Under the pieces are notes generated by a model. It saw only the letters and a program-made list of their open reading frames with translations. It was not told where the DNA came from and ran no database searches. Position numbers and translations under genes: made by a program. Shown piece by piece: positions 722 through 54,700 of a DNA stretch of 64,000 nucleotides. The stretch comes from Alphaproteobacteria bacterium (GTDB lineage: Bacteria > Pseudomonadota > Alphaproteobacteria > UBA828): the NCBI GenBank assembly GCA_965237415.1, contig CBDEFM010000002.1:224001-288000 (forward strand), given 5' to 3'. Numbering within the stretch: position 1 is the stretch's first letter; every line of letters starts with the position of its first letter.

Positions 722-1531
722 ATGGCGGGGGAGGCGATGGCGGAGGATCGCGCAGCGGACCACACGGTCGGCGTCGACGGCAAGGTGGTACTGGTCACCG
801 GCGCATCGCGCGGCATCGGTGCGTGCTGCGTCCGCTCGCTGCTCGATGGCGGCGCCTCCGTCGTCGTCCACTACAACACACGGCGGGAGGCAGCCGAGGC
901 ATTGGCGCAAGCCGCGCCCGACCGCTGCTTTCCGGTGGGTGCCGATCTCGCGGAGGAGGAGGCGCCCCACGCGCTCTGGCAGCAGGCGCTCGCCTGGCAG
1001 GGCCGGATCGACGTGCTCATCAACAACGCGGCCGTCTACGAGGCCGAGCCTGCGATCACCGATGATGATGGCTGGCCCGCAGCGTGGCGCGCCGTCTGGC
1101 AGCGCACGTTGCAGATCAATCTGCTGGCCCCCGCCGAACTCGCCACGCTTGCCGTCGAGCACTTCCGCTCGCGGGGCGGCGGCATCCTCATCCATCTCTC
1201 GAGCCGGGCGGCCCATCGCGGCGAGAAGCCGCTGCTCGGCGCCTATGCGGCAAGCAAGAGTGCGCTCAATGCGCTGAGCCACACCATCGCCCGCAATCAC
1301 GGTGGCGAGGGCGTGCTCTCCTACGCTGTGGCGCCCGGCTGGGTCGGCACCGACATGTCGTGGGACTACATCAACAAGACCGGCGATCGCGGCCCGCTCG
1401 CAGAGAACGCGCTCGGCACGCTGATCCCACCCGAGGAAGTGGCGAACATCGTGACCTTCCTCGCCTCCGGCGCGGCCCGCCACGCCACCGGCACCGTCAT
1501 CGACATCAACGGCGCGTCCTTCCCGCGATAG
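722..1531 (+). CDS. SDR family NAD(P)-dependent oxidoreductase
   Basis: TGASRGIG Rossmann motif, NNAA, YAASK catalytic motif, C-terminal TGTVIDINGAS. Confidence 0.93.
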   Translation: MAGEAMAEDRAADHTVGVDGKVVLVTGASRGIGACCVRSLLDGGASVVVHYNTRREAAEALAQAAPDRCFPVGADLAEEEAPHALWQQALAWQGRIDVLINNAAVYEAEPAITDDDGWPAAWRAVWQRTLQINLLAPAELATLAVEHFRSRGGGILIHLSSRAAHRGEKPLLGAYAASKSALNALSHTIARNHGGEGVLSYAVAPGWVGTDMSWDYINKTGDRGPLAENALGTLIPPEEVANIVTFLASGAARHATGTVIDINGASFPR

Positions 1532-1539
1532 GGGGACGG
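1486..1539 (+). repeat. SDR 3'-end direct repeat, copy R1 (functional gene end)
   Basis: caccggcaccgtcatcgacatcaacggcgcgtccttcccgcgaTAGggggacgg. Confidence 0.9.
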
Positions 1540-1572
1540 AGGTGCGGATCACCGTCGCAAACAATTGCGCGA

Positions 1573-1588
1573 ATCGCAAAAATGCTAT
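1573..1588 (+). promoter_or_regulatory. Probable TA autoregulatory operator/promoter
   Basis: Imperfect inverted repeat ATCGCA-AAAA-TGCTAT in the AT-rich stretch just upstream of the toxin start. Confidence 0.5.
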
Positions 1589-1604
1589 ATCTGAGTGATC
1601 GAAG

Positions 1605-1931
1605 GTGTGGACCGTCGAGTCCCTGAATGAGACCGTGGACGAGGAACTTCAGGCGTTACCCGCCGATATGCGGGCACGCCTCACGCGAATCTGCGAATTG
1701 ATTTCCACGGTGGGTCTGGAGCGTGTGGGCGCACCGCATGTCAGGCACTTGAGAGGTCCGCTCTGGGAAATGCGTATGAGCGGCAGGGCGGGAATATCGC
1801 GTGCGGTCTATGTCGCAAGCAGAGAGGACAAGAGAATTGTGATCGTGCGGGCGTTCATCAAGAAAACCATGAAGACGCCTCGCCGAGAAATCGATTTGGC
1901 GCTGCGCCGCGCCAAGGAGGTGACAGGATGA
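1605..1931 (+). CDS. Type II toxin, RelE/ParE (Gp49-like) family
   Basis: 108 aa, PHVRHLRGPLWEMRMSG...RAVY...AFIKKTMKTPRREIDLALRR; overlaps the antitoxin start (ATGA). Confidence 0.88.
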   Translation: MWTVESLNETVDEELQALPADMRARLTRICELISTVGLERVGAPHVRHLRGPLWEMRMSGRAGISRAVYVASREDKRIVIVRAFIKKTMKTPRREIDLALRRAKEVTG

Positions 1932-2206
1932 GCAAGCTGGCCGATTTGCACGAAAGGTGGAGCCGGGAGCCGGAATATCGCGAGGCCTACGACGGGCTGG
2001 GCCTGGAGTTCGAACTTTCCCGCTCTCTCATCGAGGCACGCACTCGTGCAAAGCTCACACAAGCCGAACTGGCCGAACGCATGCAGACCACGCAATCGGT
2101 GATCGCCCGGCTCGAGAGTGGCCGGAGCCGACCGTCGACGAGGACGTTGGAAAAGATCGCGCAAGCGACCGGCACGAGGCTTCGTATCAACTTCGACCCG
2201 GCGTGA
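1928..2206 (+). CDS. XRE/HigA-type HTH antitoxin
   Basis: LTQAELAERMQTTQSVIARLESG HTH; toxin-first gene order. Confidence 0.88.
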   Translation: MSKLADLHERWSREPEYREAYDGLGLEFELSRSLIEARTRAKLTQAELAERMQTTQSVIARLESGRSRPSTRTLEKIAQATGTRLRINFDPA

Positions 2207-2217
2207 CGATCGCTGCA

Positions 2218-2266
2218 GCACTGTCATCGATATCAACGGCGCCTCTTTCCCACGCTTGGGAGACGG
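2218..2266 (+). repeat. SDR 3'-end direct repeat, copy R2
   Basis: gcactgtcatcgatatcaacggcgcctctttcccacgcttgggagacgg, 41/49 identical to 1491-1539; still translates TVIDINGASFPR. Confidence 0.9.
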
Positions 2267-2303
2267 CCCGTCGTGGAAGACGCGACAGACACGGAGGGCA
2301 ACC

Positions 2304-3419
2304 ATGAAGGCAACCACATGCTTTGCCGCGTTAGCGACGATCGGCCTGCTTGCACTTGCGGGCTGCTTACACGATGGCGGAGACGACGACTCTCTTGCAT
2401 CCGGGCCTCCGGCGACCACCGAGACGGACATGTCCACGGTAACCCTGAACGACTCGCGCAGCGCGAATTCCGCCGAGGTCATGGACGTGACGGCCCAAGC
2501 GGCACGGTCGCTGCCCCAATTCGGGAGCGTTGTTCAGGCGGCAGCCGTCGGTGTGGCGAACGCTTCCGGCATTTCTACGAGCTTCGACGGCACTGACCTG
2601 ACGATCACTGTGTCGCGCGACGATGGCAGCGCGCTGGCGCTCGACACCGGGAGCGACGTCTCAGACTCTTCCGGCACTTTTTTCGAGTCACCCATTGCCG
2701 GCCACAGTGCTCAGGCGTGGGTCGTGTTGAAGATCGACAACGACGGCATTTCGGTCGCTCGCGCTACGGTGACTGCGAACGAGGGCGATGCGGCCGACTA
2801 CCTGACGATGGGCTATTGGATGCACATCGCCGGGGATTTGTCCGAGTTCAGCTTCACCGGTGTTGAGATCGGGACCTTCGTCGATGGCCCCGAGCTCTCT
2901 TTGACATCGCCGGCGAGCCTGCCGAACCAGGGAACGGCGTCATATTACGGGCCGGCAGGAGGCGCTTGCAGCGTCCTCCATGGCACGGGGGAGGGGGGCA
3001 CCCCAGGCCCGACCGAGATCGGCGAGTTCGCCTCGACCGTGGAGCTCACGGCCTATTTCGCAGGGGGTACCATCGGCGGGTGCGTGGGGTGCCGCGATGG
3101 GGTTGAGCTGTTCGGGGTGCTTCATGACGCCGACACGGGGGAAGAAAGCGACATCCTGCTTGAGAATTCCGGCTATCGCTTGCATCTCGACCCCACCAGC
3201 CTCGACTCCAACGGCACGTTCCTCGGTCAGCAGATGAGGCTGGAGCACCCAGCCATTTCGATCACCAGGACAACGGGTGCGTGGGGCGGTCAGTTCTCAA
3301 ACATTCCCGACAGCGCGGGCGACCCACGTCTGTTGGCCGGCACATTCGGCGCCGAGGCGACCGGCGCCGACGAGAGCGAGGCCGTCTTCCTCGGCTCCTT
3401 CATCGGCACCAAGGAATAG
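2304..3419 (+). CDS. Lipoprotein with probable transferrin-binding-protein-like beta-barrel
   Basis: RBS ggaggg and ATG at 2304; signal peptide with lipobox LAGC, Asp/Ser-rich linker, C-terminal GAWGGQFS...LAGTFGA...FLGSFIG beta-strand pattern. The fold assignment is inferred. Confidence 0.65.
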   Translation: MKATTCFAALATIGLLALAGCLHDGGDDDSLASGPPATTETDMSTVTLNDSRSANSAEVMDVTAQAARSLPQFGSVVQAAAVGVANASGISTSFDGTDLTITVSRDDGSALALDTGSDVSDSSGTFFESPIAGHSAQAWVVLKIDNDGISVARATVTANEGDAADYLTMGYWMHIAGDLSEFSFTGVEIGTFVDGPELSLTSPASLPNQGTASYYGPAGGACSVLHGTGEGGTPGPTEIGEFASTVELTAYFAGGTIGGCVGCRDGVELFGVLHDADTGEESDILLENSGYRLHLDPTSLDSNGTFLGQQMRLEHPAISITRTTGAWGGQFSNIPDSAGDPRLLAGTFGAEATGADESEAVFLGSFIGTKE

Positions 3420-3468
3420 ATGCTTGCTCAGGGGCCGCTCCGTTCGAGCGGTCCCACTTTCACTCCCT

Positions 3469-3516
3469 CACCGGCACCGTCATCGATATCAACGGTGCGC
3501 GCTTACGCAATAGGGG
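3469..3516 (+). repeat. SDR 3'-end direct repeat, copy R3
   Basis: caccggcaccgtcatcgatatcaacggtgcg is 29/31 identical to 1486-1516, followed by ...cgcaaTAGggg retaining the stop codon context. Confidence 0.88.
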
Positions 3517-3547
3517 AGGCGGCCCCGCGCTGAACACGGGGCCGCCT
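3517..3547. terminator. Stem-loop between convergent genes
   Basis: Perfect 11-bp stem aggcggccccg-N9-cggggccgcct. Confidence 0.7.
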
Positions 3548-3555
3548 GTTGCCGA

Positions 3556-4599
3556 TCAGCCGTAACGATAGGGCCTTCCGGCCTTCTCCATGTCCGAATT
3601 GTACTGCTTGAAGATCTCGACCACCTTGGCCTTGGTTTCCGATTCGGCCGCGATTTCGTCCCAGAAGATGCGTGCCGCGGCTTCGACCTGGGCCCATTCG
3701 TCGTCGGGGATCGAGGTCAGCTGCATCTTCGTGCCGTGGACGCGGAGGCTCGCCTCGCCGCCCCAATACCACCACTGGCGGTAGTAGTGGGACTGATCGC
3801 AGATGACGTGCAGGAGGGTCTGAAGATCCTCGGGAATCTCGTTCCAGCGTTCCATGTTGGCGTAGAACGAGCCGATCCAGGCGCCTGAGATGTTGTTGGT
3901 GAGGAAGTAGTTGGTCACGTCGGCCCAGCCGACCGTGTAGTCCTCGGTGATTCCGGACCAAGAGACGCCGTCGAGCTCGCCGGTCTGCACCGCGACCTCG
4001 ATGTCCTCCCAGGGAAGCGTCACCGGGACCACCCCGAACTGGGTCAGGAAGCGCCCGGCGGTGGGGAAGGTGAAGACGCGCTTGCCCTCCAGGTCGGCGA
4101 GAGAGTGGATCGGGTCCTTGGTTGCGAAGTGGCAGGGATCCCAGGCACCCGCCGAGATATGCTTAATCCCGACTTTCTCGTACTCGGCTGCCCAGATCTC
4201 GTTCAGGCCGTATTGGTTGAATAGCACGGGCACGTCGAGCGAATAGCGCGATGCGAAGGGGAAGTATCCACCGAAGACCGTCACCTCGGTGGGCGACGCC
4301 ATCGAGTCGTCGTCCGATTGCACCGCGTCGATTGTGCCCCCCTGCATGGAGCGGAAGAGCTCGCCCGTGGGCACGATCTGGTCAGAGAAGAACAGCTCGA
4401 TCTGCATGCGCTCGCCCGCGATCTTGTTGAACATATCGATCGCGGGTTTCACCACGTGCGCGGCCAAGGCGGGACCGGCGTAGGTCTGCATCCGCCACGT
4501 GATTTGGGCCTGCGCGACTGCGGGCGTCGTCAGCGCGGCGGCAGCGGCAACGGCAGGCGCGGCGGCAGCGGCCTTGAGAAGATTACGCCGTGTTGTCAT
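3556..4599 (-). CDS. dctP: TRAP transporter substrate-binding protein (TakP-like), Tat signal
   Basis: TRRNLLK Tat motif, WRMQTY; operon with DctQ and DctM. Confidence 0.9.
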   Translation of the reverse strand: MTTRRNLLKAAAAAPAVAAAAALTTPAVAQAQITWRMQTYAGPALAAHVVKPAIDMFNKIAGERMQIELFFSDQIVPTGELFRSMQGGTIDAVQSDDDSMASPTEVTVFGGYFPFASRYSLDVPVLFNQYGLNEIWAAEYEKVGIKHISAGAWDPCHFATKDPIHSLADLEGKRVFTFPTAGRFLTQFGVVPVTLPWEDIEVAVQTGELDGVSWSGITEDYTVGWADVTNYFLTNNISGAWIGSFYANMERWNEIPEDLQTLLHVICDQSHYYRQWWYWGGEASLRVHGTKMQLTSIPDDEWAQVEAAARIFWDEIAAESETKAKVVEIFKQYNSDMEKAGRPYRYG

Positions 4600-4644
4600 G
4601 AGTTTTTCCTTTCAGGTTGATGCTGAGGTAAACCCAGCTATGGA

Positions 4645-5970
4645 TCAGTTGCCGTAAACGTGCGCCGGAAACCACAGCGCGATTTCCGGGAAAATCATGA
4701 TGATCGTGAGTGCCAAGATCATCACGCCGACAAAGGGTATGATCGAGCGGTAAATGTCGCGCAAGGTAATTTCGGGTGGGGCCATGGCCCGCATGAGGAA
4801 GAGGTTGTAGCCGAAGGGCGGCGTCATGTACGCGATCTGCGTGGTAATCGTATAGAGCACGCCGTACCAGATCAGGTTAAATCCCAGGGCGTCGACCAGC
4901 GGCACATAGAGGGGCGCCACGATCACCAGCATCGCGGTGTCGTCAAGGAACGTTCCCATCACGAGGAACGACAACTGCATGAGGACAAGCACCATCCACG
5001 GCGAAAGTCCCATTTGTTCGGTGAACACATCCTCGATCGCGTGCGCCGCGCCGAGCCCATCGAACACCGAGCCGAAGGCCAGCGCCGCCAGGATGATCCA
5101 CATGAACATGCAGCTGATGCGGAGCGTGTTGCGCACCGTGTTCTCGAGCACCTGCCGGGTCATGCGCCGCCTGACCACAGCGGCAAGGAAGGCTGCGAGA
5201 GCGCCGATGGCCGAGGATTCCACGAGCGAGGTCGATCCGCTGATGAAGGGCACGATCATCACCGCGTAGATGAAGAGCGGCAGCAGGCCGGCGCGGAGAA
5301 GTTTGATCTTTTCGGCCCTGGGCACATCGCGTTCGGCCTTGGGAAGCACGGGGCCGAGGCTGGGGGTGATCGCACAGCGCACACCGATATAGAGGACGAA
5401 AAGCCCGGCCATCATGAGACCGGGGAAAATCCCCGCGAGCCAGAGTTGCCCCACAGGCTGACGCGCAATCATCGCGTAGAGGACGAGCACCACCGAGGGA
5501 GGTACGAGGATACCGAGCGAGCTGCCGGCTTGAATGACGCCGGTCACCATGCGCTTGTCGTAGTTGCGCTTGAGCAGTTCCGGCAGCGCGATGGTCGCGC
5601 CGATGGCCATGCCCGCAACGCTCAGCCCGTTCATCGCCGACACCAGCACCATCAGGCCGATCGTGCCCATGGCGAGCCCGCCGGCCATCCCGCCCGTCCA
5701 CACGTGGAACATGCGGTAGAGGTCGTCGGCGATCCTCGATTCCGAGAGCACATAACCCATGAAGATGAACATCGGCAGCGTGAGCAGCGGATACCATTTC
5801 ATGAGCTTCATGGCGGCGGCGAAGCCCAGGTCGTAACCGCCTCGATCGCCCCAGAGGAGGAGCGCAGAAAGCACGGCGACGAAGCCAATGGCCGCAAAGA
5901 CTCGCTGGCCGGTGGCCAACATAAGCATCATTAGCGCGAACATCAGAATGGTGATTAGCTCGTAGGACAT
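4645..5970 (-). CDS. dctM: TRAP transporter large permease
   Basis: Start at MSYELIT; LGILVPPS and TPPFGYNLF motifs. Confidence 0.92.
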   Translation of the reverse strand: MSYELITILMFALMMLMLATGQRVFAAIGFVAVLSALLLWGDRGGYDLGFAAAMKLMKWYPLLTLPMFIFMGYVLSESRIADDLYRMFHVWTGGMAGGLAMGTIGLMVLVSAMNGLSVAGMAIGATIALPELLKRNYDKRMVTGVIQAGSSLGILVPPSVVLVLYAMIARQPVGQLWLAGIFPGLMMAGLFVLYIGVRCAITPSLGPVLPKAERDVPRAEKIKLLRAGLLPLFIYAVMIVPFISGSTSLVESSAIGALAAFLAAVVRRRMTRQVLENTVRNTLRISCMFMWIILAALAFGSVFDGLGAAHAIEDVFTEQMGLSPWMVLVLMQLSFLVMGTFLDDTAMLVIVAPLYVPLVDALGFNLIWYGVLYTITTQIAYMTPPFGYNLFLMRAMAPPEITLRDIYRSIIPFVGVMILALTIIMIFPEIALWFPAHVYGN

Positions 5971-6479
5971 CAGATTGCCTCGCCGCGAAGCCGCAGGATG
6001 TCCTTGAAAAACTCTGAGATCGCCTGAAAGATCATCAATGCAATGCCGACGATCATGGTGACCTTGATCGGCCAAAGATAAGGCCGCCAGGCGGTCGGGC
6101 TTCGTTCGCCCCCATACTGAAAACTGTAAATCGTGGAATCGATTCCACCCCATAGGAGAACCACAAGATAGAACAAGAGAAAGAATACCGTAACTGAGTC
6201 GATCCATGCCTTTCTGCGGACGGACCAGGATCCGTAAAACAGGTCCATCCGCACGTTTGCGTCAGTCTGAACCGAGTAGGGGCCACCTAAGATGTAATAG
6301 GCGACCATCGCGAACTGCGCCATTTCCAGCGTCCAAAGCGAGGGGTTGAAGAACGTCTTGGAGAGCGACGACCAGAGCAGAATGCCCATGATCACGAACA
6401 GGCCGTACATGATGACCCGCCCAACGCGGCGGTTGATCAAGTCGACCACGTAAATGTAACCGCGCATCGCGCGGGTCAC
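5970..6479 (-). CDS. dctQ: TRAP transporter small permease
   Basis: About four TM segments, NVRMDLFY motif; probable GTG start at 6479 after a gagggg RBS. Confidence 0.88.
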   Translation of the reverse strand: MTRAMRGYIYVVDLINRRVGRVIMYGLFVIMGILLWSSLSKTFFNPSLWTLEMAQFAMVAYYILGGPYSVQTDANVRMDLFYGSWSVRRKAWIDSVTVFFLLFYLVVLLWGGIDSTIYSFQYGGERSPTAWRPYLWPIKVTMIVGIALMIFQAISEFFKDILRLRGEAI

Positions 6480-6904
6480 GGCCGCGCTCCCCTCGCTGCG
6501 GCGCCACGCGCCCCAGGCGGCGGGACAAGGTTGCATGGAAGGGCTGCGACAATATGTGCGTGGGTCTTGGCGCCCCTCGGAAGGTCTTTCCTGCCCTCGA
6601 TCACAAGGGGCCGGAGAGTGCAGTCGTCTCCGCCAAGAAGAGGGTCCGAAGCGACGGTGTTTCCCCGCCCGAAGGGGGCGCCTGTTGCAGGCTTGCCAGA
6701 CGGTCCGTTCCCGTACTCTCCCTGCTGCACCACCCTATCCCCGGAACCTGTTCGCCCGCCGCCGCATTTTCCCCGGTGGCACTATGAACAAAACCTCGCC
6801 TGCTACGCAATCTAATCTCCTTGAAGAGCATGCGTGGGCGGCCGAAGCGAAATACGGCATCGGGGTTTCCGCCCCCTCGTGCGTGGTCGCTGCGCTTGAT
6901 TGAG

Positions 6905-6922
6905 TGTGAACCATAGTTTACA
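6905..6922 (+). promoter_or_regulatory. Probable TA operator
   Basis: Inverted repeat TGTGAAC-CATA-GTTTACA abutting the toxin start. Confidence 0.55.
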
Positions 6923-7227
6923 TGTTGCCTGTGCCCGAGATCGTTGAGAGCGCCACGTTCAAGCGCTGGATCCGAGGTTTGCGCGACAGGAGCGCCACTG
7001 CACGAATCAACGCGCGTCTGCGGAGCGTGTCGCTGGGCAATGTCGGGGATGCGGGGCCGGTGGGCGGCGGTCTGTTTGAGATGCGCGTGCATCACGGACC
7101 CGGCTACCGCATCTACTTCCTGCGTGAGGATGCGAGGGTCGTCTTGCTCTGTGGCGGCGACAAGGGCAGCCAGCAACGCGACATCGAACGCGCCGGCAAG
7201 CTCGCGAATGATTGGAGGCAGAGATGA
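6922..7227 (+). CDS. Addiction module killer protein (RelE/HigB-like toxin)
   Basis: RINARLRSVSLGNVGD...VGGGLFEMRVHHGPGYRIYF...LLCGGDKGSQQRDIERA. Confidence 0.9.
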   Translation: MLPVPEIVESATFKRWIRGLRDRSATARINARLRSVSLGNVGDAGPVGGGLFEMRVHHGPGYRIYFLREDARVVLLCGGDKGSQQRDIERAGKLANDWRQR

Positions 7228-7511
7228 ACGAAGCGTTTACAAGGTGGGACGTTACCGAGCACCTTCGCACCCGCGAAGACACGCGCCTCTATCTGGAAGC
7301 CTGTGCGGAGGAGGACCCGGGCGATGGCAGTCTGATCCGCGCCGCCCTGAACGATATCGCACGGGCGGGTAACATAAGCCGGCTGGCGCGCGACGTGGGA
7401 ATGAGCCGCGAGGGACTTTACAAGGCATTGTCGGAGGACGGGAATCCAAGTTTTGCGACGGTAATGCGGATTGCGCGGGCGTTAGGGTTGCAAGTTCGGA
7501 TTACGGTGTAG
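7224..7511 (+). CDS. Addiction module antidote protein (HTH)
   Basis: WDVTEHL...ALNDIARA...LARDVGMSREGLYKALSEDGNPSFATVMRI. Confidence 0.9.
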   Translation: MNEAFTRWDVTEHLRTREDTRLYLEACAEEDPGDGSLIRAALNDIARAGNISRLARDVGMSREGLYKALSEDGNPSFATVMRIARALGLQVRITV

Positions 7512-7528
7512 GCGACCGCGACCAACCA

Positions 7529-8251
7529 TCACCGTCCGCGGCGTTCGTAGACGTTGGCGCGGGGAGTGGCGCCGATGCGCCGCGCCGTCGCCTTCCACTT
7601 GGGGCCGTGGCGGGCCTCGGGGCCGGCGAGGGCGTGGGCGATCTCGTGCAACACCGTGTCTCTGATCTCGGCCTCGCTGGCGTCCAAAGCATGGGCCCGG
7701 CCGATGCGGATCACGCGGTCCTGGAAGTGGCAGTCGCCGAGGCGCCTCTCGGCTTCGAGGAAGGCGAAGGTCCACTCGCCGAGGCCGTGCTGGTCCATCA
7801 ACTCCCGCGCTATCGCGGCGATGCTGGCGAGGCGTTGGGCGCCGTTGCGCGCCTCTTTCTGCCGCCCTGAGCCACCCATGCCGCTCAGCCCGCCGTAGGG
7901 AACATTCCAAAGGGTCCGGCCCACGCGCACCCTGGCTTGCGTCGGGTTGAGCTTCACGATCTTGCCGCTCCGCGGCGTCCCGTCGGGGCCCGCGAACGCC
8001 ACCCTGTCGCCCACCCGCCACTGGGCGCGCGCCGTATCGTCGCCCGTCACCATCGTGGCGCGGCGGGGGAGGCCCGAGGGCGTCAGCGCCGCCTCCGACA
8101 CCTTCCAGAGCCGGTCCGCGTCATCGATCACCGTGGCGAGAGTCCGCCGTCTTTGCCGGCGGAGGAGGTGGCCGTGGATCGTCTTCCCCCGATGGGTGAA
8201 GCGCACGGCGTCGCCGATGGAGAGCGCCCGAACGTCCCGGCCATCGGCCAT
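7529..8251 (-). CDS. SprT-like Zn metalloprotease with two N-terminal SH3/KOW-like repeats
   Basis: DTVLHEIAHAL...HGPKWKATARRIGA SprT motif; two similar N-terminal blocks IGDAVRF...LWKV and VGDRVAF...LWNV. Confidence 0.78.
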   Translation of the reverse strand: MADGRDVRALSIGDAVRFTHRGKTIHGHLLRRQRRRTLATVIDDADRLWKVSEAALTPSGLPRRATMVTGDDTARAQWRVGDRVAFAGPDGTPRSGKIVKLNPTQARVRVGRTLWNVPYGGLSGMGGSGRQKEARNGAQRLASIAAIARELMDQHGLGEWTFAFLEAERRLGDCHFQDRVIRIGRAHALDASEAEIRDTVLHEIAHALAGPEARHGPKWKATARRIGATPRANVYERRGR

Positions 8252-51633: not shown

Positions 51634-51809
51634 GCCGCCCCCGCCGCTGCCGTGCCGCCATCATGGACAACCCGCCCGCACCGTCAATCTGCCCGCACCG
51701 GCAGGTGATCATTCAACCTCCACTTGCGAGATGACCAACTAAGGTGTACATACTCTCAAGGAATGGTGAGCGCGGTGTTCGAGACCGACGCAGACGTGGG
51801 GATTGGACC

Positions 51810-52091
51810 ATGCCGACCAAGATCTTCAAGGTGGCCGAAGCCCGAGCCAGCTTCTCGAGCCTCTTGGTGCGCGCCAAGGAGGGTGAGGAGATCATGATTA
51901 CAAAGGGCAGCGAACCGCAGGCGCGCATCGTCCCGCCGGCCGAGGCTGCGCAGCGCGAAGCCGCGCCGCTCAAGCACCTCAACCTGCCCGACGATCTCTT
52001 CGACCGCGAGGATCAAGAGCAAGTCATGATCGACGCCGGCGACTACGGCGATTCCCTCGGCATCTGGCGCGGCCCGCCGAAGGTTTCGTGA
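51810..52091 (+). CDS. Phd/YefM family antitoxin
   Basis: VAEARASFSSLLVRAKEGEEIMITKGSEPQARIVP. Confidence 0.88.
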   Translation: MPTKIFKVAEARASFSSLLVRAKEGEEIMITKGSEPQARIVPPAEAAQREAAPLKHLNLPDDLFDREDQEQVMIDAGDYGDSLGIWRGPPKVS

Positions 52092-52465
52092 GACTGCTTC
52101 TCGACAGCCATGCCGTCTACTGGTGGGTCGCCGGCAGCCGGAGATTGTCGGCGACCGCGAGGAAGCTGATCCTCGATCGCGAGAACGCCCTGCTGGTCAG
52201 CGCGGTCTCGATCTATGAGCTTGAGTGGAAGGCGCAGCGCAGCCGCATCGCCCTGCCGCCGCAGGAGCTGCGAGCTGCGCTCAGGCGCAATGACGTCGAG
52301 GACCTCGCCATCACCCACGACCATGCCGACTATGCGGCCCAGCTCGATTGGGACCACCGCGATCCGTGGGATCGCCTTCTGGCCGCCCAGGTGCGACTGG
52401 AGAACTGTTCCCTCGTCTCGGTCGACGAGGTCTTCGACGCCATCGGCGTCGACCGACAGTGGTGA
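52088..52465 (+). CDS. vapC: VapC (PIN domain) toxin
   Basis: LLLDSHA, VSAVSIYE, HRDPWDRLLAAQ, LVSVD. Confidence 0.9.
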   Translation: MRLLLDSHAVYWWVAGSRRLSATARKLILDRENALLVSAVSIYELEWKAQRSRIALPPQELRAALRRNDVEDLAITHDHADYAAQLDWDHRDPWDRLLAAQVRLENCSLVSVDEVFDAIGVDRQW

Positions 52466-53318: not shown

Positions 53319-54700
53319 TGTCGAGAACATTCTGAGTTGACCGCTTCTGTTGTTGTGGCTGGCCCTGTGGGGAAGTGGTCAGGCGCGGAGCGGTTGTCCA
53401 CTTGTCCACGGGGCTTTGGCCGGTCGCGTCGAAGCGGATCACGCGGCCTGCCGGGTTGAGGTGTCGATGGGCTCGCCGCCGGCCTTGTAGCGGGCCAGGC
53501 ATCGGGGTCCGTGGAAGACGGCGAGCGTGCCATCGGGATACTCGTGCACCCGGACCGTGGCCTTGACGTAGTGGCGGCGGTGGCGGTCGGCGGGGAGCTG
53601 GAGCACCCGGCGCTTGTAGCGCACGGTGTTGTCGTTAGCGACGGTGCGCTCCTCCTGGACGCAGAGGATATCGTCGAGCGCGCCGGCGAAGGGGACGAAG
53701 GCGGTGCCCTGGTCCTCGGCCGGGGTGGCGAAGTGGGCGTTGTGTTGGGGCAGATAGACCTCCTTGAGGAAGCGGTTGGCCTCGTCGATCCCGGTGATGC
53801 CGGCGAGCCGGAGTTCCTGGGGCAGGCGCTTCTGCAAGGTGCCGAACATGCGCTCGGAGCGCCCCCTGGCCTCGGGCGAATAGGCTGCGATGAGCTCGAT
53901 GCCGAGGCGCTGAAGCGCGCGCCCGACCTGGGTCGGGTTGTCCTTGTCCACCTTGCCGCCCGCGTCGGGCGTGTGCCAGTAGTGGCTGGCCCGGTCGGCA
54001 TAGAGCGAGCAGAACAGCCCGCGCTCCCCGATCACCTCGAAAAGCGCCCGGAGGCTCGACATCGTGCCCTCCTCCTCGACGAAGAAGGCCGAGTAGATCT
54101 CGCTCGTGGCGTCGTCCATGGTGACGATCAGGTCGAGCGGCGGCTGGCCGGCGAGCCACTCATGCCGCGAGCCGTCCTGGTGCACCATCATGCCGGGAAG
54201 CGCGCGGCGTGGGCGCTTGCGCCGGTGCGCGCCACGGCGCGGTGCCGCCCGCCTGCGCCCATACGCCTGTAAGGTCAGCCGCACCCAGTTGTAGCTGCGC
54301 TTGCTGCCGTGCTCCGCCACCAGCTTCTCGTGGAAGTGCTTGGCGGTGAAGTCCCAGTAGCGGGTGTCGAACAGCTCAAGCACCCGCGCCACTTCGTCCA
54401 CCGGCGCGCGACGTGCCGAGAGGCGGCCCAGGCGGCGATCGTAGAGACCCTCCGCGCCTTCCGCCTCAAAGCGATCGCGCCAGCGCCGGAAGGTGCGCTC
54501 CGAGACGCCCAGGATCTCCGCCGCCTCCGCTTGGCCCAGCACACCGCGACGGGTGCGCCCGTAAACCTCTTCGAACTTCATCAGTCTCAGCCCCTGTGCC
54601 TGCTCCGTCCGACGCATCCAAACCCTCCGTGGCTTGGAAGCCTTCTAAAGCCGGACAGATCATCTGGTACATGGACCGGACATATCCCGTGTTACCGACA
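53319..54700 (-). mobile_element. IS1202-like (ISNCY) insertion sequence
   Basis: Ends TGTCGAGAACA... and ...TGTTACCGACA (imperfect IRs, TGT...ACA); flanking 17-bp direct repeats at 53302-53318 and 54701-54717; single transposase ORF. Confidence 0.88.
53439..54617 (-). CDS. ISNCY/IS1202-family DDE transposase
   Basis: N-terminal HTH (AAEILGVSERTFRRW), HQDGSRHEW, MDDATS, YADRAS, AYSPEARGRSERMFGTLQKRL. Confidence 0.93.
   Translation of the reverse strand: MRRTEQAQGLRLMKFEEVYGRTRRGVLGQAEAAEILGVSERTFRRWRDRFEAEGAEGLYDRRLGRLSARRAPVDEVARVLELFDTRYWDFTAKHFHEKLVAEHGSKRSYNWVRLTLQAYGRRRAAPRRGAHRRKRPRRALPGMMVHQDGSRHEWLAGQPPLDLIVTMDDATSEIYSAFFVEEEGTMSSLRALFEVIGERGLFCSLYADRASHYWHTPDAGGKVDKDNPTQVGRALQRLGIELIAAYSPEARGRSERMFGTLQKRLPQELRLAGITGIDEANRFLKEVYLPQHNAHFATPAEDQGTAFVPFAGALDDILCVQEERTVANDNTVRYKRRVLQLPADRHRRHYVKATVRVHEYPDGTLAVFHGPRCLARYKAGGEPIDTSTRQAA

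Follow-up and report, generated by a model that had tools for sequence, protein, structure and literature searches.

Displaced copies of an SDR gene end in a hypervariable SDR-sprT interval of an alphaproteobacterium: possible scars of serially nested alleles

We examined a 64,000-nt stretch of DNA from an alphaproteobacterium (hereafter the window; positions 224,001 to 288,000 of contig CBDEFM010000002.1, assembly GCA_965237415.1), in which the 3' end of a gene for an oxidoreductase of the short-chain dehydrogenase/reductase (SDR) family is found three times in direct orientation, with small gene modules between the copies. The SDR gene itself (722..1531, + strand; Pfam adh_short_C2, 6.8e-38) forms the conserved left flank of the locus, and a gene for an SprT-like protein (7529..8251, - strand; Pfam SprT-like, 1.7e-10; syntenic in 13 loci) forms the right flank; the two genes are convergent and both are conserved. 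Behind the SDR gene and its functional end (R1) lie a HigB/HigA-like toxin-antitoxin pair (TA1), a displaced SDR end (R2), a lipoprotein gene, another displaced end (R3), a hairpin and the dctPQM genes of a tripartite ATP-independent periplasmic (TRAP) transporter, and a second toxin-antitoxin (TA) pair, TA2, adjoins sprT. R1 and R2 flank TA1 while R2 and R3 flank the lipoprotein gene, in both cases as direct repeats holding the SDR 3' end, as attL and attR of a cis-mobilizable element (CIME) would.

The toxin of TA1 (1605..1931, + strand; Pfam Gp49, 6.5e-22) is Gp49/HigB-like and belongs to the RelE/ParE superfamily; 2161 homologues were retrieved, and those sources that give them a name call them RelE/ParE family toxins. 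Its partner is a HigA-like antitoxin of the HTH_3 family (1928..2206, + strand; Pfam HTH_3, 1.4e-14), the gene of which overlaps the toxin stop by 4 nt. As judged from these family matches, the pair fits the type II RelE/ParE (HigB/Gp49)-helix-turn-helix (HTH) layout of a small toxin overlapping an HTH antitoxin gene. A palindrome read in the sequence upstream of the toxin gene, TTGCG-N5-CGCAA (1565..1579; a 5-bp stem in the hairpin scan), is a possible operator of the pair. The lipoprotein gene (2304..3419, + strand) was found as an open reading frame (ORF) with a lipobox, LAGC, and family searches placed its product in no Pfam or NCBIfam family. Only 74 related clusters were found in 5.8 billion proteins. 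A language-model search pointed to TbpB-like beta-barrel surface lipoproteins (score 0.95, 208/256 features), a resemblance that we take as a lead only.

To place the locus among its relatives, a genome scan was made with the SDR protein and 10-kb flanks. It returned 21 loci, of which six were paralogues (28-51% identity) and were ignored; the 15 orthologous loci (80-97% identity; L001 to L015) all come from metagenome-assembled genomes (MAGs) titled Alphaproteobacteria or Rhodospirillales bacterium. The SDR C-terminus ends in FPR in 37 of the 45 best protein clusters, most of them reading TGTVIDINGASFPR.

The repeat search located the three-copy family at 1491-1539, 2218-2266 and 3474-3522, 49 nt each, with R2 84% and R3 71% identical to R1 over this length. 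When a 12-nt seed was used, the family began at 1486, 2213 and 3469, and R3 matched R1 at 89% over 36 nt. A 22-nt core is present in three copies in the 64 kb at no more than one mismatch, against 0.00 expected from 100 shuffles. All three copies lie on the + strand. R1 (1486..1539) is the functional SDR 3' end (...TGTVIDINGASFPR and stop) with 8 nt past the stop, and R2 (2218..2266) still encodes TVIDINGASFPR, its stop having changed from TAG to TTG. R3 (3469..3522) has a decayed tail with a 1-nt deletion. The canonical C-terminus is accordingly encoded by R1 and R2 but not by R3, in which a TAG (3511-3513) stands one base out of frame behind the degraded tail (...NGARLRN...). The decay of R3 is uneven: its left 31 nt carry only 2-5 site differences from functional ends, while the 18-nt tail holds about five changes and an indel. 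The lost stop of R2 also opens a 433-amino-acid ORF (2118-3419) that starts within the antitoxin gene, crosses R2 and continues into the lipoprotein gene, and gene callers may therefore annotate an N-terminally extended lipoprotein with an SDR tail peptide.

A profile built from the last 66 nt of the 16 orthologous SDR genes (the window and the 15 loci) matched, besides these 16 genes, only four sequences: R2 of the window (E 4e-8, profile positions 26-64), R3 of the window (E 6e-8, positions 21-57), an R2 in L001 (E 2e-7, positions 26-64) and one remnant in L005 (E 1.5e-6, positions 18-66), which sits between antitoxin 1 and the dctP hairpin. The next-best match had an E-value of 0.045. The repeats are displaced SDR gene ends, in line with the original prediction that this gene end occurs three times in direct orientation and that R2 starts 5 nt after R3 in SDR coordinates. 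Displaced ends are seen in three of the 16 genomes only (the window, L001 and L005), and their left edges fall at profile positions 26 (R2 of the window and of L001), 21 (R3) and 18 (L005), that is at -41, -46 and -49. They are near one another without being identical.

Some further candidates were considered. Behind antitoxin 1, L002 has a much-decayed candidate remnant with a pairwise score of 33 and a 12-nt exact match, GGCGCCGCCCGC, to its own SDR gene farther upstream; it is possibly another SDR-end remnant, perhaps starting more than 66 nt before the stop, although the 12-nt match is suggestive only. Longer leftward homology of R3 and of the L005 remnant needed several gaps, and that of R3 overlapped the lipoprotein hairpin, so we treated it as unproven. 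A first reading of the R3 tail as the AGC type of the clade termed A below was given up: the tail aligns best with the window/L001 tail type, by a margin that is not diagnostic. The 22-nt core, inspected by eye only, showed no similarity to the dif consensus and just 4-bp terminal inverted repeats, and a dif/Xer or attC-like site in the core was dropped on that inspection alone.

Since the window probably comes from a metagenome-assembled genome and its modules match alternative alleles of relatives, the repeats might be collapsed or concatenated strain alleles. We consider such a chimera extremely improbable. The independent chromosome-level MAG of L001 (OZ253557.1) contains R1, TA1, R2 and the start of the lipoprotein gene at 94% identity, and on another contig a frame-shifted lipoprotein gene encodes protein P0292 (85% identical in its lipoprotein part), which continues through '...HSLTGTVIDINGARLGSRGGGPALNTGPPVADQP', an R3-like copy, and then the dctP hairpin region. 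The lipoprotein-R3-hairpin arrangement is thereby spanned independently, and L005 has an analogous remnant. Moreover, the lost stop of R2 and the frameshift of R3 are decay mutations that are not expected in a chimera of functional alleles. The SDR-TA1 junction is likewise present on a further contig, because the SDR cluster P0039 is a frame-shifted variant running on into the TA-pair leader.

One of the 15 loci, L013, sits among other neighbouring genes and was excluded from the comparison of alleles, leaving 14 syntenic loci. In these the order lux-like monooxygenase, SDR, variable interval, sprT-like, serS, surE is kept, with the exception of L001. Between SDR and sprT, the 14 loci and the window have at least 10 distinct contents. 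The interval is empty in L014, with about 146 nt between the two stops, and contains the lipoprotein gene only in L009, the lipoprotein gene and TA2 in L004 and L008, the lipoprotein gene and a truncated TA2 in L007, L010 and L015, and a truncated TA2 alone in L012. L002 carries an orphan antitoxin 1 and TA2; L005 an orphan antitoxin 1, the SDR-end remnant, the TRAP genes and TA2; L011 two small lipoprotein-like ORFs and the TRAP genes; and L006 one 268-amino-acid ORF of no family. In L003, 446 nt that include N and poly-G precede the TRAP genes and a TA2 fragment; here the N run and long poly-G between SDR and dctP (L003:11150-11260) make us suspect an assembly problem, and the content of this allele is uncertain. 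L001, the closest relative, matches the window up to lipoprotein residue 61 and continues with insertion sequence (IS) elements: an IS6-family transposase at that residue is followed by IS110-type and DUF772 transposases and three Sel1-repeat/trypsin-like/SH3 proteins (L001:11767-20807). Because sprT is absent within 10 kb, the L001 locus appears rearranged.

The SDR-sprT interval is a hypervariable hotspot of small alternative modules. The content variation and empty site whose absence would have spoken against the original prediction were looked for in the 14 syntenic genomes, and variation proved plentiful, with empty (L014), one-module (L009) and different-module (L006, L011) alleles all represented. 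The idea of repeat-bounded cassettes in general fared worse: extra SDR ends occur in only three of the 16 genomes, and most module boundaries in the relatives have no repeat.

TA decay is also evident at the locus. Toxin 1 has been deleted twice with different endpoints, L002 (10804-10850) keeping its last ~23 nt, and the antitoxin start of L005 (7572-7585) lying ~12 nt after the SDR stop. Toxin 2 is reduced to its last ~60 nt in L007 (11965-12030), L010, L015 and L012 (10804-10870), and in the same four loci the TA2 antidote is partly deleted as well (window 7368-7470 missing). The toxin thus goes before the antitoxin, in at least three independent deletions.

Tree building from the left flank, with the final 66 nt of the SDR gene excluded, and from the right flank recovered two clades in both cases. 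Clade A comprises the window, L001, L002, L003, L005, L011 and L012, and clade B comprises L004, L006-L010, L014 and L015 (support 100/100 on the left flank). L014 was placed by the left flank only, since part of the sequence taken for its right flank was ill-chosen and the resulting branch was long. TA1, complete or as its orphan antitoxin, and the TRAP genes each occur in four of the seven clade-A genomes and in none of clade B. In nucleotide comparisons of the window with relatives, antitoxin 1 is 82-85% and TRAP 87-88% identical, the left flank 84-87%; both modules look as old as clade A itself. The lipoprotein gene has a different distribution. It follows SDR directly, without a repeat, in six of the eight clade-B genomes (L004, L007-L010 and L015), none of which has SDR-like sequence after the gene, and within clade A it is found only in the window and L001, preceded by R2 in both and followed by the R3 copy in the window. 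The lipoprotein tree groups the window with L015 at an unresolved node adjacent to L004, on a branch not longer than the clade-B branches, and this branch length hints at import.

The origin of R2 is best seen in this comparison. The segment 2218-3420 of the window (R2 and the lipoprotein gene) is colinear with the SDR end, leader and lipoprotein gene of L004, L007-L010 and L015, and the 12-nt tail of R2 is 1 nt off the tails of L007, L008, L010 and L015 compared with 3 nt off R1. Over the 12 codons shared by R1 and R2, all six differences are at third positions and synonymous (P 1.3e-4 to 2.3e-4 for random substitutions), and the sole damage to R2 is the TAG to TTG change, which is shared with L001. 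In contrast, 11 of 41 sites, amino-acid changes included, separate the L005 remnant from the functional end of that genome, which indicates that old remnants decay. The purely synonymous differences imply that the divergence of R2 took place under selection for a gene end and that its displacement came only a short time before the window and L001 split. This substitution pattern shows R2 to have been a working gene end until recently.

This result bears directly on the possibility that the full array (TA1-R2-lipoprotein-R3-TRAP-TA2) is ancestral and that all other alleles arose by deletion alone, in some cases between repeats. Deletion is common here, with toxin 1 lost twice at differing endpoints (L002, L005) and toxin 2 truncated in L003, L007, L010, L012 and L015, and the L005 layout of antitoxin 1, remnant and TRAP is what an R2 x R3 deletion would give. 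An anciently displaced R2 should have decayed, as the L005 remnant has, yet it has only synonymous differences from R1 and a tail of the sister-clade type; a single ancient array with deletions only would be ruled out because R2 diverged as a working end and was displaced recently. In addition, TRAP and TA1 are missing from all eight clade-B genomes and the lipoprotein from five of the seven in clade A, so that many independent clean losses would be needed, and how the repeats arose would still call for an explanation. We therefore regard an ancestral array as very unlikely.

The junction between the lipoprotein gene and R3 provides a second line of evidence. The lipoprotein gene is followed by a hairpin with a 10-bp stem (3431..3455, + strand; dG -21.1, z -3.7), which L009 shares in an alignment made by eye, and then by the 9-mer CCCTCACCG (3465..3473, + strand), which is identical to the sprT stop-codon context of L008, L011 and L015. 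In the window itself, sprT has the stop context ACCATCACCG. The last five bases of the 9-mer, CACCG, are also the SDR sequence just upstream of the core (position -46), which constitutes a 5-nt microhomology. R3 begins 5 nt before R2 because CACCG is counted as SDR sequence; the left junction of R2 has no clear microhomology. These identities are suggestive of a module, reaching from R2 to the 9-mer, that may correspond to the full SDR-sprT interval as in an L009-like allele, extended by 41 nt from one flank gene and ~6 nt from the other.

Next to R3 stands the 11-bp perfect hairpin (3517..3547) that the original prediction had tied to the SDR end. It lies between R3 and the dctP stop, starting 4 nt past the TAG at 3511-3513. 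The stem is real (dG -29.9 on the + strand and -32.2 on the - strand, with z -3.4 and -4.2), and the region after R1 indeed folds no better than shuffles (z -0.12). However, the hairpin belongs to the dctP/TRAP module and not to the SDR end, because it is conserved beside the dctP 3' end in L005 and L011. A terminator scan flagged neither this hairpin nor the one at 3431-3455, since no T-run follows either.

We propose that the array represents the scars of hotspot alleles nested serially at the SDR end by flank-anchored homologous and microhomology recombination, a reading to which we give a probability of about one half. There would have been two successive events, in each of which the SDR end received DNA from another haplotype of this locus, which brought its own SDR tail and pushed the resident tail downstream. 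In the first, a sister-clade-type SDR-lipoprotein-sprT allele would have recombined into an SDR-hairpin-TRAP allele, anchored by a homologous crossover in SDR and closed at the other end by an illegitimate join at CACCG between the donor sprT stop region and recipient SDR position -46, leaving R3. In the second, a TA-pair allele would have entered likewise or via its own older remnant, and the lipoprotein-type tail that it pushed aside would be R2. A circle that had closed at CACCG and inserted by a Campbell-type crossover would yield the same structure. Homology-facilitated illegitimate recombination (HFIR) and Campbell insertion are both compatible with the locus because a homologous anchor in SDR and a microhomology join would leave exactly such a module; we infer the pathway (a RecA-type anchor with microhomology, or a Campbell-type circle) and the order of events from the junctions.

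As to the second event, either TA1 and R1 entered an SDR-lipoprotein haplotype recently, or R2 and the lipoprotein gene entered behind TA1. The first alternative is favoured on three sequence features: R3 is too well preserved in its left 31 nt for an old clade-A remnant, a decay that lessens from R3 through R2 to R1 is consistent with additions at the working end, and the window and L002 share the same 9 nt, GCAGCACTG, at their junctions behind antitoxin 1. We favour a TA allele that came with an older remnant and recombined through it, in which case the shared GCAGCACTG is as expected. The originally predicted sequence of events, with R3 oldest and R1 newest, agrees weakly with the decay observed (R3 frame-shifted, R2 with only its stop lost, R1 functional).

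Several observations weigh against serial nesting. The three displaced ends (R2, R3 and the L005 remnant) start no more than 8 nt apart, as would be expected of a defined site more than of random illegitimate joins; some of this clustering is ascertainment, in that only in-gene joins leave visible repeats and long repeats would be unstable. The R3 core is kept better than its tail, which could mean that the core is maintained by function or gene conversion and does not decay freely. A crossover within 41-49 nt at ~85% identity is inefficient for RecA. No mosaic tract that would mark a homologous anchor was seen in the SDR body, where sliding identity is equal to both clades; SDR has only five fixed clade differences, at which the window has the states A, A, B, A, B. 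The 9-mer match to sprT is post hoc, with two matches of CCCTCACCG in the 64 kb against 1.1 expected, and the lipoprotein tree does not separate import from vertical descent. The mechanism rests on 16 genomes, two to three independent junctions and short sequences.

The same clustering of edges bears on a CIME-like or integron-like explanation, in which the ~45-nt SDR end is an att site served by a recombinase elsewhere, and the TA pair and the lipoprotein gene are integrase-less cassettes that leave as circles and re-enter either at the gene end or at displaced copies (tandem accretion). It is favoured by the direct repeats of the SDR 3' end with the gene restored each time, by left edges of three remnants within 8 nt, by an R3 core better conserved than its tail and by GCAGCACTG at the antitoxin 1 junction of the window and L002, as if it were an element arm. 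Gene-end-bounded tandem islands, some without integration genes, are also known, as described in sections of PMC5704250 for CIMEs and of PMC3146451 for the Dehalococcoides ssrA islands.

Against this, no tyrosine or serine recombinase was detected among 110 window ORFs (19 + 91 scanned; those beyond 10 kb pre-filtered for third-position GC, GC3, >=0.66 and length >=80 amino acids), in the 9 kb preceding the locus in L001 and L002, or in the L013 sequence that follows SDR (39 ORFs). The original prediction of no recombinase or transposase nearby is borne out, the sole transposase-like ORF of the window lying ~50 kb off (53442-54617, - strand); this ORF and the IS transposases of L001 are the only mobility genes in the DNA examined. 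The modules consist of TA genes or one lipoprotein gene only, with no decayed integration or transfer genes inside them, and no integrase-bearing related element with the same site specificity was present in the 15 related loci. Furthermore, the repeat edges are not identical, 13 of the 16 genomes vary in content without any repeat, and the core has no notable inverted-repeat structure, with the fold after R1 being no better than shuffles.

The lipoprotein gene in particular does not behave as the cassette it was first taken for: it is a plain SDR neighbour in six of eight sister-clade genomes, and R2 is the gene-end type of that clade. The right end of its module, apparently a fragment of the stop region of sprT joined to R3 via the 5-nt microhomology, is the trace expected from flank-anchored recombination of an entire allele and not the one expected from an att site. 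No attC-like fold, integrase or circle evidence was obtained, which leaves the integron-like array mobilised in trans without positive support. Although trans-mobilised cassettes would, if real, represent a new kind of att site, we judge the CIME-like or integron-like explanation to be somewhat unlikely.

A related idea, which we find distinctly doubtful, is that the ~45-nt SDR end is itself a portable recombination site. Any module flanked twice would then become a cassette, leaving as a circle and entering at the working end or at a displaced copy, through a recombinase elsewhere or through RecA acting on the 22-nt core, and TA1 beside SDR and TA2 beside sprT would secure the array at its two ends. 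It predicts the better-kept R3 core, edges no more than 8 nt apart and the GCAGCACTG junction common to the window and L002; if true, the locus would be an integrase-free, protein-gene-anchored cassette array.

If the repeats are instead scars of serial nesting, the locus is a readable record of swaps, in which the synonymous-only differences of R2 date an event and the junction carrying a piece of the opposite flank gene suggests that whole alleles were nested and not replaced. Module-swapping hotspots free of mobility genes are common and their mechanism is poorly understood; should the pattern be general, serial gene-end scars could give the order and source of acquisitions without an integrase signal.

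The remaining part of the interval contains the TRAP genes, all on the - strand: dctP (3556-4599; Pfam DctP), dctM (4645-5970; Pfam DctM) and dctQ (5970-6536; Pfam DctQ). The operon (3556-6536) has a GC content of 0.50-0.66 (0.50 in dctQ) compared with ~0.70 in the flanks and is 87-88% identical at the nucleotide level across four clade-A genomes (window, L003, L005, L011); from its composition it looks like an old acquisition retained in part of the clade. A 385-nt spacer between dctQ and toxin 2 (6537-6921) is partly conserved in L002, L003 and L005 and ends, just upstream of toxin 2, with the palindromic GTGTGAACCATAGTTTACAT, which is also present in L004 and L008 and is probably the operator/promoter of TA2. 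This pair consists of an HI1419-type RelE/ParE toxin (6922-7227, + strand; NCBIfam TIGR02683, 9e-34) and an HI1420-type antidote (7212-7511, + strand; NCBIfam TIGR02684, 8e-29), and it is found whole or truncated in 10 relatives. A third TA pair, VapBC-like with a Phd/YefM antitoxin and a PIN toxin (51744-52462), adjoins the transposase-like ORF at 53442-54617, which has only an HTH part; together they may form another small accessory islet.

Among known systems, the minimal mobile elements (MMEs) of Neisseria are alternative small gene sets between conserved flanks without mobility genes, thought to be exchanged by homologous recombination in the flanks and including restriction-modification systems in their cargo (Saunders & Snyder 2002, as cited in a passage of PMC1797815). 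The SDR-sprT locus shows the same traits, namely differing small content between the same flanking genes, selfish cargo (here TA pairs) and, apart from the secondary IS insertions of L001, no transposase or integrase and no terminal repeats belonging to it. However, MME alleles replace each other, whereas here they would be nested in series, each leaving a displaced SDR 3' end, and the hosts are uncultured alphaproteobacteria.

HFIR, as summarised in part of PMC6382021, combines one homologous anchor with a join at 3-10 bp of microhomology in transformable bacteria (de Vries & Wackernagel 2002; Prudhomme 2002; Meier & Wackernagel 2003), and like the events proposed here it integrates foreign DNA beside a conserved gene without an element-encoded enzyme. 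It is known from laboratory transformation, whereas the proposed scars in the window would be natural ones that duplicate a gene end and are stacked serially. To our knowledge, natural stacked HFIR scars that duplicate a gene end have not been described as such, although we made no search aimed at stacked gene-end scars without an integrase. Chromosomal integrons also line up small single-function units, RelE/ParE-type TA pairs included, with repeats between them. In contrast to integrons, the locus has no IntI, attI or attC-type fold and only two units; its repeats are direct coding copies of a neighbouring gene, and of its two hairpins, which show no relationship, one goes with the lipoprotein gene and the other with dctP.

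The Dehalococcoides ssrA islands are tandem and hypervariable, each bounded by a 20-bp repeat of the 3' end and some lacking an integration module; the portion of PMC3146451 concerned describes 16 islands with a conserved serine-recombinase module, one fixed insertion nucleotide and tmRNA as the target. Tandem modules downstream of one gene, 3'-end repeats and a hypervariable region are shared with the locus studied here, but the tmRNA target, the recombinase module and the fixed insertion point are not. Finally, CIMEs show tandem accretion at a gene 3' end, as with ICESt1/ICESt3 at fda in the relevant sections of PMC5704250, and the likeness extends to integrase-less DNA between direct repeats of the target end, tandem units and a gene restored by element sequence. 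CIMEs are decayed integrative and conjugative (ICE) or integrative and mobilizable (IME) elements that use the integrase of a related element, whereas the units here are cargo only (0.7 and 1.2 kb), have no decayed mobility genes, non-identical repeat edges and no cognate integrase in sight, and one of them ends in a piece of the opposite flank gene. On balance, the locus is closest to Neisseria MMEs in its behaviour and closest to CIME-type accretion in its anatomy, while it differs from both in having no visible integrase lineage and in being stacked.

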